A DNA stretch of 64,000 bases, taken from contig OX597815.1 in assembly GCA_951406725.2 (NCBI GenBank), positions 200,942,001-201,006,000 on the forward strand. The letters run 5' to 3'. The stretch is from Octopus vulgaris. Taxonomy: Eukaryota. Below, in pieces: positions 16,973-61,859 of this stretch. Below the pieces are notes generated by a model. The model was given only the letters and a program-made list of their open reading frames with translations, was not told the DNA's origin and searched no databases. Made by a program: the position numbers and the translations under genes. The stretch's first letter is position 1. Each line of letters opens with the position of its first letter.

Positions 16973-18981
16973 TATGCATTCATGGAGAAGAACGATATTT
17001 TCCCCATTGAACAAAAAGGGTGCCGCCGAGGCTCTTACGGATGCAAAGATCAACTGCTAATTAATCGTATAATCCTTGAGAACTGTCACAACAAGCGCAG
17101 AAATCTCAGCTCCGCATGGATTGACTATAAAAATGCCTTCGACAGTATACCGCATCCATGGATCTTGAGATCGCTGGACATCTTCAAAATGTCCCCGGTG
17201 ATTTCAAACTTCCTGAAGCACAATATGTCGTTGTGGAATACGAATCTCCAATTATACCACTCTAATGGTGTACTTGCCTCAGAAAATATAAACATCAATT
17301 ATGGAATTTTTCAAGGTGACTCACTTTCACCTTTAATATTCTGCATAGCCCTAATACCCCTTACAAGTGAATTAAACAGAACAGGGTATGGGTATAAAAT
17401 TGCCAATAAAAAAATAAGCTATCTATTTTTATGGATGACTTAAAACTTTATGGTAAAGACAATAATGAACTTGAAGGCCTATTGCGCACTGTGAAAGCAT
17501 TCAGCGATGACATCGTGATGGAGTTTGGACTTGAGAAGTGTGCCAAGGCCACTTTCCAGAAAGGGAAAGTGAAGACCACAAATTCAGTCGTGTTAGATGT
17601 TGACACAGTCATAAGAGAGCTTGAGCAAGAGCAAACATACAAATATTTAGGGATAAATGAAGGCTCTGGTATTCAGCATGCAAGCATGAAAGAGAAGATC
17701 AGGGAGGAATGTTATAGAAGAGTTCGTGCAGTCCTGAAATCTGAACTAAATGCACGTAACAAGGTGCTAGCTATAAATACCTTAGCAGTTCCAGTTGTTA
17801 CTTATAGCTACAATGTGTTGAACTGGAATATGAGTGAAGTAAAGAATATAGATAGGAAAATACGCAAGCTGCTGAGTTGTAATAGGATGCACCACCCAAA
17901 GGCAGACGTAGATCGCCTTTACCTTCCCAGAGCCCAAGGAGGTCGAGGCCTGATCCAATTTGAACTAGCTTACAAAACAACCACAATTGGACTGGCCAAA
18001 TATCTCGAAATATCGAATGACTGGATGCTAAAGCTCGTGGAAAATCACGAGAGACGAAAGAAGCTTCATTCTATCATAGAGGAAAGCAAAAAATTTGCTA
18101 TTGATCTCGTACAGGATACCCAAACTGAACAACCCGAGGGAAGTACAGCAACTATTGTTGCAAAGAAGGTGAAAATAATGGCAACGAAAAAAGCGCACGA
18201 GCAATTGGCTGATAGGTGGGAGGAGAATCCTCTGCACGGCAAATATGTGGCCCGCAGCAAACAAGCTGATGTTGACCAGAAGCAAATCCATCAGTGGCTA
18301 CGGAGCTCAGGGCTAAAAGCAGAGAGCGAAGATTTCATCCTGGCTGCTCAAGATCAAAGCCTCTTAACCCGGAACTACCAGGCCAATGTGATGAAATATG
18401 GAGCAGACCCAAAATGCCGACTCTGCAACGACATGATTGAAACAGTGGACCACCTAATCTCTGGATGTAAAGTCTTATCACCAGTGGAGTATAAATTAAG
18501 ACATGACAGAGCTGGCCAATATCTACACTGGCTAATAAGTCGGCATTACAATATCAAAACTGCCGACAAGTGGTATAATCACCACCCTGAGGCTGTAACT
18601 GAAGGAGAAAATGTAACCATTCTGTGGGACTTTCCAGTACATACAGACGGAACCATCAAGGCCGATAAACCAGATATTGTTGTGAAAGACCAAAACAATA
18701 AAGTTTGCTTATTGATCGACATGAGCATCCCCTGTGATCATAATCTCTCAGCGAAAGAGTTTGACAAGCTCAGAAAATATAAAGACCTACTCATTGAAAT
18801 TGAGAAAATGTGGCATCTCAAGGCGGTTACAATACCAGTGATCGTAGGAGCACTAGGAATGATCAAGAAGGGAACCGAAAATTATATGAGAATGATCCCT
18901 GGCTTACCATCCCTGCAAGAAGTGCAAAAGATTGTCTTAACTGGTACATCACACGTATTGAGAAGAGCATTGTCGATGTGA
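16971..18981 (+). pseudogene. Reverse transcriptase, CCHC zinc knuckle and PD-(D/E)xK restriction-like endonuclease ORF with one frameshift
   Basis: EQKG, WIDYKNAFDS, GIFQGDSLSP, (F/Y)MDDLKL, YKYLG, CRLC..ETVDHLISGC, RHD, KPDIVVKD, KLRKY; a single 1-nt frameshift at ~17429 separates ORFs 16895-17443 and 17431-18981; N-terminus missing. Confidence 0.92.
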
Positions 18982-30330: not shown

Positions 30331-31063
30331 GAACTTAATTTATTGACCCCAAAAGAATGAACTGCAAAATCGAATTCGGCGGAATTTGAACTCAGAACGT
30401 AAAGACAGACAAAATCCCGCTAAGCATTTGGCCGCCTAGTCTAGGCACAAGGCGCGAAATGGAGGAGGAGCCAGTCGATTAGATCACTTCCAGTACGCAA
30501 CCGGTACTTAATTTATCGATCCTGAAAGGATGAAAAGCAAAGTCGACCTCGGCAGAATTTGAACTCAGAACGTTAAGACATGCAAAATACTAGTAAGCAT
30601 TTCACCAGGCGAGCTAACGTATTTATTTCTTTACTACCCACAAGGGGCTAAACACAGAGGTGACAAACAAGGACAAACAAATGGATTAAGCCGATTACAT
30701 CGACTCTAGTGCGCAACTGGTACTTATTTAATCGACCCCGAAAGGATGAAAGGCAAAGTCGACCTCGGCGGAATTTGAACTCAGAACGTTAAGACATGCA
30801 AAATACTAGTAAGCATTTCACCAGGCGAGCTAACGTATTTATTTCTTTACTACCCACAAGGGGCTAAACACAGAGGTGACAAACAAGGACAGACAAATGG
30901 ATTAAGCCGATTACATCGACTCTAGTGCGCAACTGGTACTTATTTAATCGACCCCGAAAGGATGAAAGGCTAAGTCGACCTCGGCGGAATTTGAACTCAG
31001 AACGTAGCGGCAGACGAAATACCGCTCAGCATTTCGCTAACGTTTCATCCAGCTCGCCGCCTT
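30331..31063 (-). mobile_element. Stack of family-A SINEs including a ~216-bp tandem duplication
   Basis: Four Nin-type cores in a row; the private variant CGTTAAGACATGCAAAATACTAGTAAGC occurs at 30571 and 30787. Confidence 0.8.
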
Positions 31064-57457: not shown

Positions 57458-58172
57458 TATAGGTACTGAATAGGCAAACAATGAATGAATGAATCAATAA
57501 ATAAGTCAATTAATCATTCAATTTCTCTATCACTCCTTCTTTCTCTCCCTCTTTCACTCTTCTCTCAAGTTTCAGTTATGTCCCGAATTCTGCGCCTAAC
57601 ACATTTCTATCTCTTTCTCTCTATTTTTAATATATTTCATCAACTCCCTAACCAAACAGCTTAATAGTTAACACGCTTACCTCTCAGTGCTGACATAATT
57701 CTTTCTCTCTCTGTCTCTCTCACTCTCTCTCTCTCTCTCTCTCCCTTTCTATCTGTCTCTGTCTTCGCATCTCCCATGAACTAACCACGCGCAAGCATCT
57801 CATATTCGGTTTAGCGTAATAACTATTATATTAACATGTGTCGCTCCCTCCGTTTTCTCTTGCTCTTCGTCTCACCTTTCAACTAACCACAAGACGGCTT
57901 AATGCACTTGGACTTAACGCATAGGTATATAAATGATCTCTATTATAGATCCAAGACCTGAGACATTGGGAGAATGGGATGGTCGATTTCACTGATCCAT
58001 GTGTGCAAAGGTTACTTATTTTTAAACCCCGAAAGGTTGAAAGACACAATCAACATCAGCGGAATTCGAACTCAGACCGTAATGCCTGAAGAAATATCGC
58101 TATACTTTTTATCCGGAATCCTAACAATTCTGCCAGCTCACTACACTAATGCTAATAATGATTCTGGTGACG

Positions 58173-58244
<72 letters not shown>

Positions 58245-58270
58245 ATAATAATAATAATAATAATAGTAAT
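58173..58270. repeat. (AGT)n(AAT)n compound microsatellite abutting the tandem array
   Basis: Direct reading of sequence. Confidence 0.95.
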
Positions 58271-58271
58271 A

Positions 58272-59531
58272 AGTCCTATATAATCTTAACAAGACAAAAT
58301 GAAGTAGATTGACATGTAATTTTTAAATCTGTGGAAGTCACGCTAGATGTTGAAATATCGTTCAACAAAATTCTCATGATAACTATGGTTCTGTTCTGTT
58401 TATTTCTCTATAACTTGTGGAGGAGTTACCTCAGTCCTATATGATCTTAACCAAACAAAAATAAAATTAAATAGACTGACATGTAATATTTGAACCTGTG
58501 GAAGGCACGCTAGAAGCCGAAATATCGTTCAACCTATTTCACACGATAGCTATGGCACTCCGGTATCTGTTTATTTCTTTATAACTTCTGGAGGAGTTAC
58601 CTCAGTCCTGTATAATCTTTAAAATAATGAAATAGACTGACGTGAAATTTTTAAATCTGTGGAAGGCACGCTACATGCCGAAATATCGTTCAATCAATTT
58701 CAAAAGATGACTATGGCAAATTCTGTTTATTCCTCTATAAATTATGGAGGAGTTACATCAGTCCTATATAATGTTAGCAAAAACAAATAATGAAGTAGAC
58801 TGACATGTGATTTTTGAACCTGTGGAAGAGAGGCTAGATGCCGAAATATCGTTCAACCAATTTCACATGATAACTATGGCATTCTTCTATTTATTTCTCT
58901 ATAACCTCAGTCCTATGTAATCTTTAAAAAAAAAAATGAAATTGACTGACGTGTAACTTTTGAACCTGTGGTAGGCACGCCACATGCCTAAATATCGTTC
59001 AACCAATTTCAAATGATGAATATGGCATTCTTCTCTTTATTTCTGTATAACTTCTGGTGGGGGTTACCTCAGTCCAATATTATCTTAAAAAAAAAAAACA
59101 GTGAAATAGACTGACATCTAATTTTTGAACCTGTGGAAGGCAGGCTAGATGCCGAAATATTGTTCAACCAATTTCACATCATAATTTGGTACTCTTCTTT
59201 TTATTTCTGTATAACTTCTGGAGATGTTACCTCAGTCCAACATAATTTTAGGAAAAAAAAAATAGATTGACATGTAATTTTTGAACCTGTGTAAGGTACA
59301 AGAGATGCCGAAATATCGTTCAAACAATTTCATATAACTATGGCATTCTTCTGTTTAATTCTCTATAACTTTTGTAGAAGTTACCTCAATCCTATATCAT
59401 CAGAACGAAAAAGGAAAAAATGGAATAGACTGATATGTAATTTTAGAACCTGTGGAAGGCACGCTAGATACCGAAATATCGTTCAACCAATTTCATATGA
59501 TAAATATGGCATTCTTCTATCTATTTATTTC
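58272..59531 (+). repeat. Tandem array of eight ~146-167 bp units, each with a minimal hammerhead fold (non-LTR retrozyme-like)
   Basis: Units start near 58272, 58433, 58604, 58760, 58909, 59071, 59234 and 59388; shared ATAGACTGACATGTAATTTTTGAACCTGTGGAAGGCACGCTAGATGCCGAAATATCGTTCAACCAATTTCACATGA consensus; an A-tract of variable length in each unit. Confidence 0.9.
59125..59167 (+). ncRNA. Best-preserved variant hammerhead of the array (unit 6)
   Basis: UUGAAC-CUGUGGA-A-GGCA-GGCUAGA-UGCC-GAAA-UA-UU-GUUCAA: perfect 6-bp stem I and 4-bp stem II, palindromic AUAU stem III, U instead of A at core position 6. Confidence 0.6.
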
Positions 59532-59698
59532 TTAATATTAATAATAATAATAACAAAAATAAAAGTATTCACTATTGATAGTTGTGGGATGAATCCAAAT
59601 ACCGAAAGATCAACTTTCAGCAGCAAAATATGGCATTCTTCTATCTAATTTGCCAATATTAACATTATATATATATATATGTGTATATGCGTGTGTTT

Positions 59699-59758
<60 letters not shown>

Positions 59759-59804
59759 GTGTGTGTGTGCGTGTATTTCTTTCCTGATATTCTTATATTT
59801 AATT

Positions 59805-59980
59805 TTTTACTACCCACAAGGGGCTAAACACAGAGGAGACAAACAAGGAGAGACAAAGGGATTAAGTCGATTACATCGATTCCAGTGCGTAACTGTTACT
59901 TAATTTATCGACCCTGAAAGGATGAAAGGCAAAGTCGATCTCGGTGGAATTTGAACTCAGAACGTAACGGCAGACGAAAT
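59805..59980 (-). mobile_element. Family-A SINE, 5'-truncated
   Basis: Reverse-complement match to 745-920. Confidence 0.8.
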
Positions 59981-61859
59981 ATGATATTTTTATATTTACG
60001 CCGAATCATATGATCATATTTTTATATTCAGAAAATCTGGTTTAATCTCTCCTTTTTCCTGTATTTCATTAATCTCTCGAATTAAAAATTCATATGCCAG
60101 GACATTCTACGTATATTCAACATGTTTGGATTCCTCATTTTCTATCTATGAAGACTCTATGTATAGTTCTGTAAATACAATAATATCTTCCTTCATTCTC
60201 TTCAATTTAATTTACATTTTCTCTGTCACATTGTTTTATTTTATAATTTATTCCTCTAATCTGTTATCACCAGAATAGTCGCAAAATTGATTCTGTTTAT
60301 TCGATTAACAACGATAAAGAGTGAGACGATTTTTCTATTTTGTGGAAGAGATGGAATTCCAGGATATATAATGCAATAATTATCTAATGTTTAATCTAAT
60401 ATGCTATGCAAACATTTTGTTATAATTTCGTTATTTTTATTTGTAATTTTCGCTTATTGCTCTGTTTCTTCGTTTAGTTTTGTGGATGAACACTGTCGTA
60501 AGAATGGGTAACGCATTTTTGCACCCGTTCGAAACACAGTCATGAAAAAGAAGAGACAACTTTGGAAAGATTATTATATCGCTTGGCGCCCTGAGTTCGA
60601 ATTCAGTTAAAGTCAAATTTTTATATATTTTGTCGATATAGTAAAAGTGTCGGGTGACAGAATTTGTTCGTCGGGTGAGAATACTTTGGGTATTGTATCG
60701 TTTTTTTTAAAAACTTTTTAACTGCGTAACTAACAAAAACATTGGTGCTAATCTTTCGTTTTACTTTCGACAACGGCCGCTCCGTGGAAAAATGGATTTG
60801 GACAACTGTTGATCCTAACAATGGCTATTGCTAGAGGCTGCATTTGGAGGGTATCCTTTCATGTACAAAATAACAGTGTTTCCTGACGGACGGAATCTAC
60901 GAATTGCAATGGTTTCATTACAGTTGTTTAATGCACTAAAACACAAAACAATTGCAATGAAAACGACAGCTATGTTGGTATTAACACGTGTTAAAGTAAG
61001 CATTAAGGTAATAGTACCCTCAATAACTAATAGTATATTCAAAGAGTTCTATATATATATGCTGGTCTGTATATATCAGACTTTCAACAGAGGTAATATC
61101 AGTGCCTTGTGACACGTTTGCACGCTCTTCCAAGCTGGTTTTAGGGAGGGAGGCATCTCAAAATGGAGAATGTTTGCAACAGAGATCCCTATGCTAAAGT
61201 CACTGGATGTGCAAGGTGCTGGCGTCAAATCGGGAGATATGGACGTCTTCCAACATAGTTGACAATAGCAGGATTCGAAATCAGAACGCAAAATACAGGG
61301 GCAAATAACAGAAAGTATCCGGTCCTACGGTCATAGATTTTCTTCGACCCATCACTTCACACTTGTAATGCTTATCTGCCTCGTATCGATGTAATACATC
61401 TTTCGCCTCTGGAACTCAACACGCTGTAAGCAGAACTATATACTACCAGATATTCTATTTGACACTCAACCCACCTTTCAGAAATATCATCAAATGTGCT
61501 GGGAAGAGAAGTTTTGTATTTTAGTACAGTGTCATAACAGACTTATCGGCACCGTAATTGTAACAGAATAGTTCACATCGATTTGCTATATAGTTTCATG
61601 GCTTGAGAATGTTGGAGATTGTTGCGCCATGAAAATGTGTTCATCTAATATCCAGGTGGCACTTACGAGTTTGTACGCATATGTCCGTGTGTCTGTGCAT
61701 GTGTGTGTATGTGTGAGTCAATGTATTTCATGTTGTGTCAGTGTTTTGCGTGTCGGTATTTTACGAATATTCTGTGGTAGATAGAAGTTCTCTATTCTGC
61801 ATCGCCTACAAGCTGAGTGGTGCATAGAAAAATGAACGATATCTTTTAATTTACATCAT

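Follow-up and report, generated by a model that had tools for sequence, protein, structure and literature searches.

A tandem array of hammerhead-shaped motifs in Octopus vulgaris, very probably derived from a Penelope-like element and carrying an altered core

A direct array of eight hammerhead-shaped motifs in the genome of Octopus vulgaris raises the question of whether such units spread as self-cleaving RNAs that form circles, or as derivatives of another mobile element for which cutting is dispensable. The role of the hammerhead in endonuclease-bearing Penelope-like elements (PLEs) and in retrozymes has been stated to be unclear (PMC8557442), and animal retrozymes have been proposed to originate as non-autonomous parasites of PLEs (10.64898/2026.07.22.740005; PMC7229834; PMC4209133). 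The array lies in contig OX597815.1, within the stretch of 64,000 nucleotides that was analysed as a whole (the window, with positions counted from its first letter), and the original prediction had taken it for a reverse-transcribed multimer of a small self-cleaving circular RNA.

The tandem layout and all eight motifs were found as predicted: TRF called 58272-59526 (period 163, 7.8 copies, 76% matches), and the layout of the motifs is TTGAAC / CTGTGGA plus A / GGCA-7 nt-TGCC / GAAA / TATC / GTTCAA. The predicted cuts and the monomers between them (167, 161, 163, 146, 165, 156 and 163 nt) were reproduced exactly, as was the constant 30 nt from the core C to the cleavage nucleotide in all eight units. 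The features of the locus, in window positions, are:

58173..58271 (no strand): left part of the target, a (GTA)n and then (TAA)n microsatellite
58272..59531 (+): direct array of 7.8 units (146-167 nt) of a putative PLE-derived non-autonomous mini-element, subfamily A
58323..58365 (+): hammerhead-shaped motif of unit 1, damage in both stem I and stem II; predicted cut after 58359
58490..58532 (+): hammerhead-shaped motif of unit 2, outer stem II pair broken; predicted cut after 58526
58651..58693 (+): hammerhead-shaped motif of unit 3, mismatch and wobble in stem I; predicted cut after 58687
58790..58814 (+): putative deletion junction, the example before motif 4, a relic of the ORF-start region of the parent PLE
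58814..58856 (+): hammerhead-shaped motif of unit 4, stem II broken; predicted cut after 58850
58960..59002 (+): hammerhead-shaped motif of unit 5, A9U and G12U; predicted cut after 58996
59125..59167 (+): hammerhead-shaped motif of unit 6, the sole unit with intact stems, AUU triplet, U6 core; predicted cut after 59161
59281..59323 (+): hammerhead-shaped motif of unit 7, G8U; predicted cut after 59317
59444..59486 (+): hammerhead-shaped motif of unit 8, one mismatch in stem I and one in stem II; predicted cut after 59480
59534..59555 (no strand): right part of the target, a short (AAT)n run within which a target-site duplication is indistinguishable

The array begins about 75-90 nt past a predicted cut and stops about 50 nt past the last one, at the 'short' 3' end of the family described below, inside an AAT run; no further copy of the motif was found in the 64-kb window outside the array. 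GAAA is kept in seven of the eight units, and AUAU and the AUC/AUU triplet in all of them. Across the eight units, substitutions are rarer in the core than in the linker (4/96 vs 80/789, one-sided p = 0.036), and the entire 43-nt motif carries 25/344 (p = 0.076). Indels had been said to fall in the linker and not in the motif, and the counts agree, with 6 events falling in about 100 columns of linker and none in the 43 columns of motif (poly-A tract and incomplete last unit left out), although the difference is not significant and would arise by chance about once in eight. Damage had been assigned to units 1, 4, 5 and 7; these are indeed damaged, but units 2, 3 and 8 also have a stem mismatch. 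The description of a partly decayed local copy held, a strict hammerhead descriptor being passed by unit 6 only (one of eight units, its stems intact when set against the family majority). The units are 76-89% identical to one another, and thus as far apart as they are from dispersed copies. In local folding, stem I reached a probability of at least 0.35 in four of the eight units and stem II in three, and the hammerhead fold is predicted not to be dominant in these decayed units. The seven circularised window monomers, decayed copies themselves, were not unusually self-paired (z from -1.7 to +1.4, 45-66% paired).

Among the checks that had been proposed, a scan with the Rfam hammerhead models failed to return the motif, as none was among the 20 matches in 57800-60000 even at E <= 10. 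Pfam gave no match for the one array-overlapping frame scanned (59295-59645), and nothing but one unrelated reverse transcriptase (RT) fragment for 51 of the 76 filtered ORFs of the window. A 523-aa open frame at 17410-18978 (+), with weak RVT_1 and zf-RVT matches, belongs to an unrelated, fragmentary non-LTR retrotransposon. A SINE-like repeat of very high abundance, tandem and dispersed, occupies 30476-31005, 2266-2696 and the flanks at 57900-58170 and 59780-60000; the two flanks have 9 and 15 matches in the window and are unrelated to the array. A 22-nt piece of the 3' end of the array (59502-59523) recurs 124 nt downstream at 59626-59647, beyond about 100 nt of unique sequence, perhaps through a secondary insertion with a long duplication or through a template switch.

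Units of this kind are dispersed through the 2.8-Gb assembly (227 contigs). One unit used as a DNA query returned 473 candidates, and the 40 scored were spread over many contigs; the genome-wide count by a relaxed pattern, also proposed beforehand, gave 197 exact matches to 18 fixed bases (positions 6, 7 and stem II free) and none in the reversed control. Since this pattern fits only 23 of 56 subfamily-A copies from the DNA search, and 118 matches with a U4A core come in addition, the family is estimated at several hundred to a thousand copies. Subfamily A, that of the window (about 159 nt), has GGCA/UGCC as stem II, and subfamily B (145-151 nt) has GACA/UGUC. Typical copies span 0.5-2.5 units, and the next-longest subfamily A array has about 3 units among 40 scored of 807 candidates. 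The original prediction, right about the array and its motifs, had missed this dispersed family, the rarity of long arrays and the parent PLE. Near-identical copies with common flanks (L201-L203 at G000:C20:30.95-31.30 Mb, and L024/L025 on G000:C18) are segmental duplications and not independent insertions. Assembled contigs from three runs presumed to be RNA contained 49, 7 and 6 family-like pieces, mostly short or embedded in longer contigs, the ends of which do not pile up; such contigs cannot show circles or levels.

The mode of insertion is reflected in the ends of the copies. The 88 loci fall into 63 insertion clusters, 28 of which are divergent pairs of an inverted and a direct copy (the inverted arm is absent from the window's own array), and a trinucleotide microsatellite adjoins 50 of the 63, the copies sitting in (AAT)n. 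Measured from the predicted cut, the 3' ends form two classes about 40 nt apart, at about +40-55 and +80-100; one short (<= +62) and one long (>= +79) end are combined in 23 of the 28 divergent pairs (judged by eye; two are alignment breaks). The same two classes are found in PLE copies, and in the U4A subfamily the 3' ends are sharp, at +37-42 and +81-83. Inverted 5'-truncated arms, microsatellite targets and a 30-45 bp tail are published marks of PLE insertion (PMC8557442), and the inverted-plus-direct pairs, two 3' ends and (AAT)n sites of the family are the signature of PLE insertion. In non-LTR retrozymes a target-site duplication, when present, is larger than 4 bp; in this family any such duplication is indistinguishable, since the insertion ends lie in microsatellites. 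No pile-up of 5' ends at the cleavage site was seen in the family clusters or the U4A copies; the 5' ends are scattered around the unit, and no copy has a unique 5' end. Since the 3' ends do not lie at the cleavage site either and most copies continue through an intact motif, the template would have been uncut or rejoined. Non-LTR fragments that we take to be R4/Dong-like adjoin several family copies; they were ruled out as a partner, as they have the (AAT)n target in common but not the sequence.

A pattern requiring A6 gave 11 matches, several with the same stems I and III and the same downstream sequence, a CUGAAGA core and a 5-bp stem II. At locus L094, a hammerhead motif lies about 160 nt past the end of a GIY-YIG ORF, and its stem I, GAAA-UAUC and downstream sequence are those of the unit. 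Parent-related loci show RT-region similarity to an intact 781-aa PLE, and the parent ORF pieces at L118, L119, L131, L135 and others contain a C-x5-C-x2-C linker; one of three such pieces passed the Pfam GIY-YIG cut-off. A second parent core, UUGACAA, has a U3-A8 swap. The parent is best explained as a PLE of the Neptune/Nematis type, which has a CX2-5CxxC linker before a C-terminal GIY-YIG (definition from PMC8557442), an assignment made by domain features. It is old and broken: the longest open frame is 471 aa and no intact copy was seen among 150 scored of 4364 candidates, so we infer the mobilising enzyme from geometry and homology. A search with one parent ORF piece found no homologue among longer proteins.

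The whole unit is colinear with the pseudo-LTR (pLTR) of this parent in an alignment of seven window units, 14 other mini-element units and nine natural pLTR copies. The shared stretch begins with the T-tract that precedes stem I and extends until about 12 nt beyond the first ATG, where T-rich microhomology closes the unit. In every unit the junction relic meets the T-tract before stem I at this microhomology (58810-58814 in the example before motif 4), and parent copies that extend beyond the long 3' end enter the ORF start. With the hammerhead excluded, 9 of 15 unit-vs-pLTR scores exceeded all 300 shuffles (4/5 for unit 2, 5/5 for unit 6 and 0/5 for unit 4, the deleted unit). PLE and mini-element rows split in the tree at 100/100, and subfamily A from the rest at 99/97, with a bootstrap that is not fully settled and a midpoint root used for drawing only; the window units radiate as a star in which neither a pair nor a sub-clade has support. 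AATAAA occurs within 20 nt of stem I in 54/69 PLE copies, vs 0/71 in A and 1/112 in B. The unit very probably derives from a PLE. Its stems and core are homologous to a PLE hammerhead, which bears out the hammerhead ancestry of the motif, and this homology together with the insertion geometry sustains the earlier assignment to reverse-transcribed mobile elements of the non-LTR-retrozyme kind.

The parent ORF starts (L201 and L202, at G000:C20:30952924 and 31289324 onward; L204, L213) with a hydrophobic stretch followed by a motif ending in VEPNPGP, which we take to be 2A/StopGo-like. A published abstract gives the 2A consensus as D(V/I)ExNPGP, and the literature search found no paper pairing 'Penelope-like' with 2A terms. 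A subgroup of the parent (15 of 69 copies, e.g. L096, L120, L126, L199) has the core UCGACAA, in which U4C is added to U3-A8; a CUGA change was thus tolerated in the autonomous lineage too. A second PLE family (L081-L086, e.g. G000:C16:33681000-33689000) has intact 781-aa frames with RT and GIY-YIG in many copies and, because of these intact frames, is probably recently active. Of 20 GIY-YIG loci scanned, 5 contained another minimal hammerhead, which has a U3-A8 core. The intact family was ruled out as parent, as the relaxed scan of those 20 loci turned up this other hammerhead and, apart from one relic in L061, nothing homologous to the unit; it could act in trans on the mini-element.

As the original prediction had noted, searches for CUGANGA miss the core, position 6 being U in all eight window units. 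This is not local decay, since U6 is fixed family-wide: it was found in 62/63 A and 43/47 B copies, and position 6 is A in 63/66 PLE copies. Copies chosen by the junction alone had U6 in eight of eight, three of them with U4A as well, and a pattern with positions 3-9 and 12-13 free gave 95 U6, 50 A4 and 47 U4 (by eye) among 100 matches listed of 149. The 118 matches to the U4A+A6U core are exact (control 0), about 14 of them coming from a single array. The U4A copies represent independent insertions, show sharp PLE geometry and have the lowest mean divergence, 3.4% vs 4.4%, 6.0% and 6.5% in the other mini-element groups and 7-10% in the PLE groups, a ranking biased by exact-pattern sampling, which favours young copies. 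G12A was found in 9 of 50 U4A copies vs C11.1T in 2 of 100, among the matches listed; the nine G12A copies compared have no other diagnostic site in common, and a G12A sub-lineage is a hint only. At L271:932-4018 (G000:C1:33626231-33629317), a U4A+A6U array comprises 20.4 x 151-nt units that are 97% identical, with variants common to runs of units and no microsatellite directly flanking; it is a candidate young satellite or source locus.

Stem I has 6 bp and stem II 4 bp in the majority of the family, and 89% of cells are paired in 92 distinct rows. Two-sided pair changes number 59, vs 24 +/- 3.5 when shuffled (92 distinct motifs). Almost all of these trace back to just two events, one being the C3-G8/U3-A8 swap of the parent and the other a compensatory switch from A-U to G-C at 10.2-11.2 that divides subfamilies A and B (27 cells). 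The covariation that had been proposed as a check was found at the latter position in stem II, probably as one event, but none of substance in stem I. G5, G8, GAAA, the palindrome and C17 stay fixed, and together with the compensatory change these are signs of a constraint on the fold after U6 arose.

Single and double mutants of the CUGA turn had low activity in a published scan, the C3-G8 swap excepted (PMC9901934), and a natural A6C variant cleaves slowly, at less than 0.1 per minute (PMC3088659). No cleavage rate for A6U or U4A was found in the literature searched, and nothing on position 6 in the available text of PMC10085705 and PMC11014351. The core changes argue against self-cleavage and circular RNA: self-cleavage is doubtful because U6 is fixed, CUGA mutants have low activity, a sister subfamily with two changes has spread, and the ends lie off the cleavage site. 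The slow cleavage of A6C and the protein-assisted hammerhead of the anole, in turn, suggest that weak cores may work in vivo.

Like animal non-LTR retrozymes (Cervera and de la Pena 2020, PMC7229834; Li, Clavereau and Pollet 2026, 10.64898/2026.07.22.740005), the octopus element consists of short, non-coding, AT-rich tandem units with a type I hammerhead fold, from monomers to multimers, co-occurs with PLEs and is homologous to pLTRs. It thus has the size and fold of a retrozyme (a dispersed, non-coding tandem unit of 150-450 bp) but not the core, which is not CUGANGA, so that the descriptors of retrozyme surveys would miss it. Its motif is of the minimal PLE type, unlike the canonical retrozyme motif with loop contacts, and the pairing of the window monomers, which are decayed copies, is ordinary, unlike that of the highly self-paired retrozyme circles (PMC7229834). 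Parent and junction are mapped here in a mollusc, whereas the 2026 preprint (10.64898/2026.07.22.740005), in its available text, sampled no mollusc and by its own statement tested pLTR kinship in vertebrates only. With the minimal hammerheads of PLE pseudo-LTRs (Cervera and de la Pena 2014, PMC4209133) the motif has in common the extra base after A9, G10.1-C11.1, a small palindromic helix III, and U-rich 5' and AU-rich 3' flanks, as well as, in the parent, the U3-A8 covariation; GAAA and an NUH triplet are also present. It differs from them in the fixed A6U, U4A in one subfamily, a stem II reduced from 5 to 4 pairs and a carrier without ORF that moves on its own; CUGANGA or the U3-A8 swap is present in the parent PLE and absent from the mini-element.

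The Poseidon PLE PAc of the green anole (Frangieh et al. 2024, PMC11167929) also targets ATT, has two internal RT starts 3' of the hammerhead, and uses uncleaved RNA as template, as proposed for the mini-element. Unlike the octopus element, PAc is autonomous and belongs to another clade; its hammerhead overlaps with the beginning of the ORF, and RT starts 111-118 nt into the ORF, whereas both 3' ends of the mini-element lie before the ORF start. Likeness to the Neptune/Nematis EN+ PLEs (Craig et al. 2021, PMC8557442), with their C-terminal GIY-YIG, CX2-5CxxC linker, microsatellite target, inverted 5'-truncated arms and 30-45 bp tail, belongs to the parent, all seen copies of which are broken, and not to the array. 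Every tested feature of a non-autonomous PLE derivative was found in the family (pLTR homology, inverted arm, two 3' ends and microsatellite target). Because the CUGANGA core is absent, the element is not filed as a proven hammerhead ribozyme or a full circRNA-making retrozyme; judged by its sequence, it appears to be a retrozyme-type non-autonomous PLE derivative, a known kind with an altered core. The literature search found no octopus or cephalopod hammerhead or retrozyme and no mention of 'A6U' in the papers it listed, although such variants may already be recorded elsewhere; 'Octopus' is absent from the searched files of the PMC4209133 supplement.

We consider it reasonably likely that this is a pLTR-derived mini-element, mobilised by a PLE enzyme, whose hammerhead is a weakened or silent relic, and likely that cleavage is unnecessary for its spread. 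A deletion appears to have taken the ORF and the 3' UTR, joining ORF-start sequence to the T-tract just 5' of stem I, as the homology shows, and the mini-element has also lost the AATAAA after the hammerhead. Tandem copies may be transcribed as read-through multimers from the pLTR promoter in each unit, by analogy with a published case (PMC6765202). The RT-endonuclease of the parent would then nick (ATT/AAT)n DNA, in keeping with the geometry, and reverse transcription would start at one of the two internal sites, about 40-55 or 80-100 nt 3' of the hammerhead, and read across the motif, uncut or rejoined, in most cases over 0.5-2.5 units and often with an inverted 5'-truncated arm. A6U is fixed in the mini-element lineage and U4A was added in the least-diverged subfamily; that spread continued after these catalytic letters had changed suggests that cutting is not what moves such elements. 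The helices may persist because they help in presenting the RNA to the protein of the PLE, or simply through inertia. In the anole PLE, which cuts at ATT and reverse transcribes from two internal sites bounding a 'tail', catalytic mutants of the hammerhead insert equally well in vitro, and the hammerhead cleaves only with protein present (PMC11167929). The window 8-mer is best explained as an old, decayed and unusually long copy. Against this explanation stands the window core, less mutated than its linker, and the copies that exceed one unit, with their scattered 5' ends, would be explained just as well by a circular template. A stronger form of the argument, which we hold to be tentative and on the unlikely side, reads the series CUGAAGA -> CUGUGGA/CUGUUGA -> CAGUUGA (possibly with G12A) as a loss of catalysis during which the three-way fold would have been selected as a signal, for recognition or for folding, that serves the PLE RT or, alternatively, as cores that still cleave with the help of PLE protein.

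That the array might be an ordinary minisatellite that resembles a hammerhead by chance could be argued from the missing Rfam match, the non-canonical position 6 and the single unit passing the strict descriptor; the gap-free homology to a canonical-core PLE hammerhead, with its C3-G8/U3-A8 covariation, and the hundreds of dispersed copies with PLE insertion geometry make this extremely improbable, and the pLTR homology already refutes it. A working retrozyme is a more serious competitor, although we regard it as rather unlikely. The U6 core, or even A4/U6, would cleave as a dimer or aided by PLE protein, monomers would circularise, and rolling-circle reverse transcription would give rise to the long copies and the 8-mer. 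The deletion junction lies merely 4-5 nt 5' of the hammerhead and retains it whole, one stem II change is compensatory, G8, G12, GAAA, the palindrome and C17 are conserved, the 5' ends spread around the unit, the star of window units is what one multimeric insertion would leave, and the unit size is at the low end of the 150-450 bp of metazoan retrozymes (PMC7229834). Yet the spreading subfamily carries two CUGA-turn changes, every single CUGA mutant scored low in the published scan (PMC9901934), the excess of G12A over C11.1T among the matches listed hints at a template without the general base (in copies with no other diagnostic sites in common), monomer circles are not highly self-paired, and cleavage failed in 8 of the 9 Xenopus dimers assayed (10.64898/2026.07.22.740005).

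For the length of the array there is a further reading, compatible with the mobilised relic that we prefer, and we give it a little less than an even chance: that it was inserted as one or two units and lengthened later in DNA by unequal exchange or slippage, as at the birth of a satellite. Long arrays are rare (only about 3 units in the next longest among those scored), the homogeneous L271 array with its run-shared variants looks like a DNA-level expansion, and some window units have variants in common. The window units, however, form no supported sub-clade, stand as far apart as dispersed copies do, and stop at the family's usual short 3' end in the AAT run. As an early expansion followed by decay would look alike, the star is not decisive against lengthening in DNA.

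The usual model of such elements requires cleavage and circles, although cleavage proved unnecessary for insertion in one in vitro study (PMC11167929). In the octopus genome a canonical-core parent stands beside three subfamilies with stepwise core loss and dated dispersed insertions, and because these are found in one genome, a few short natural RNAs can test the need of catalysis for spread. The birth of a retrozyme-type unit from a pLTR can also be followed here down to its junction, in an animal that is not a vertebrate, and such elements are shown to be undercounted wherever a survey insists on CUGANGA. Should the cores have only slight cleavage activity or be passive cargo, the family would still be a well-documented addition to a known kind; if they cleave with the help of PLE protein, they would be new natural hammerhead cores; and if the fold acts as a signal, a class of catalytically dead 'retrozymes' would exist that all CUGANGA-based surveys have missed.
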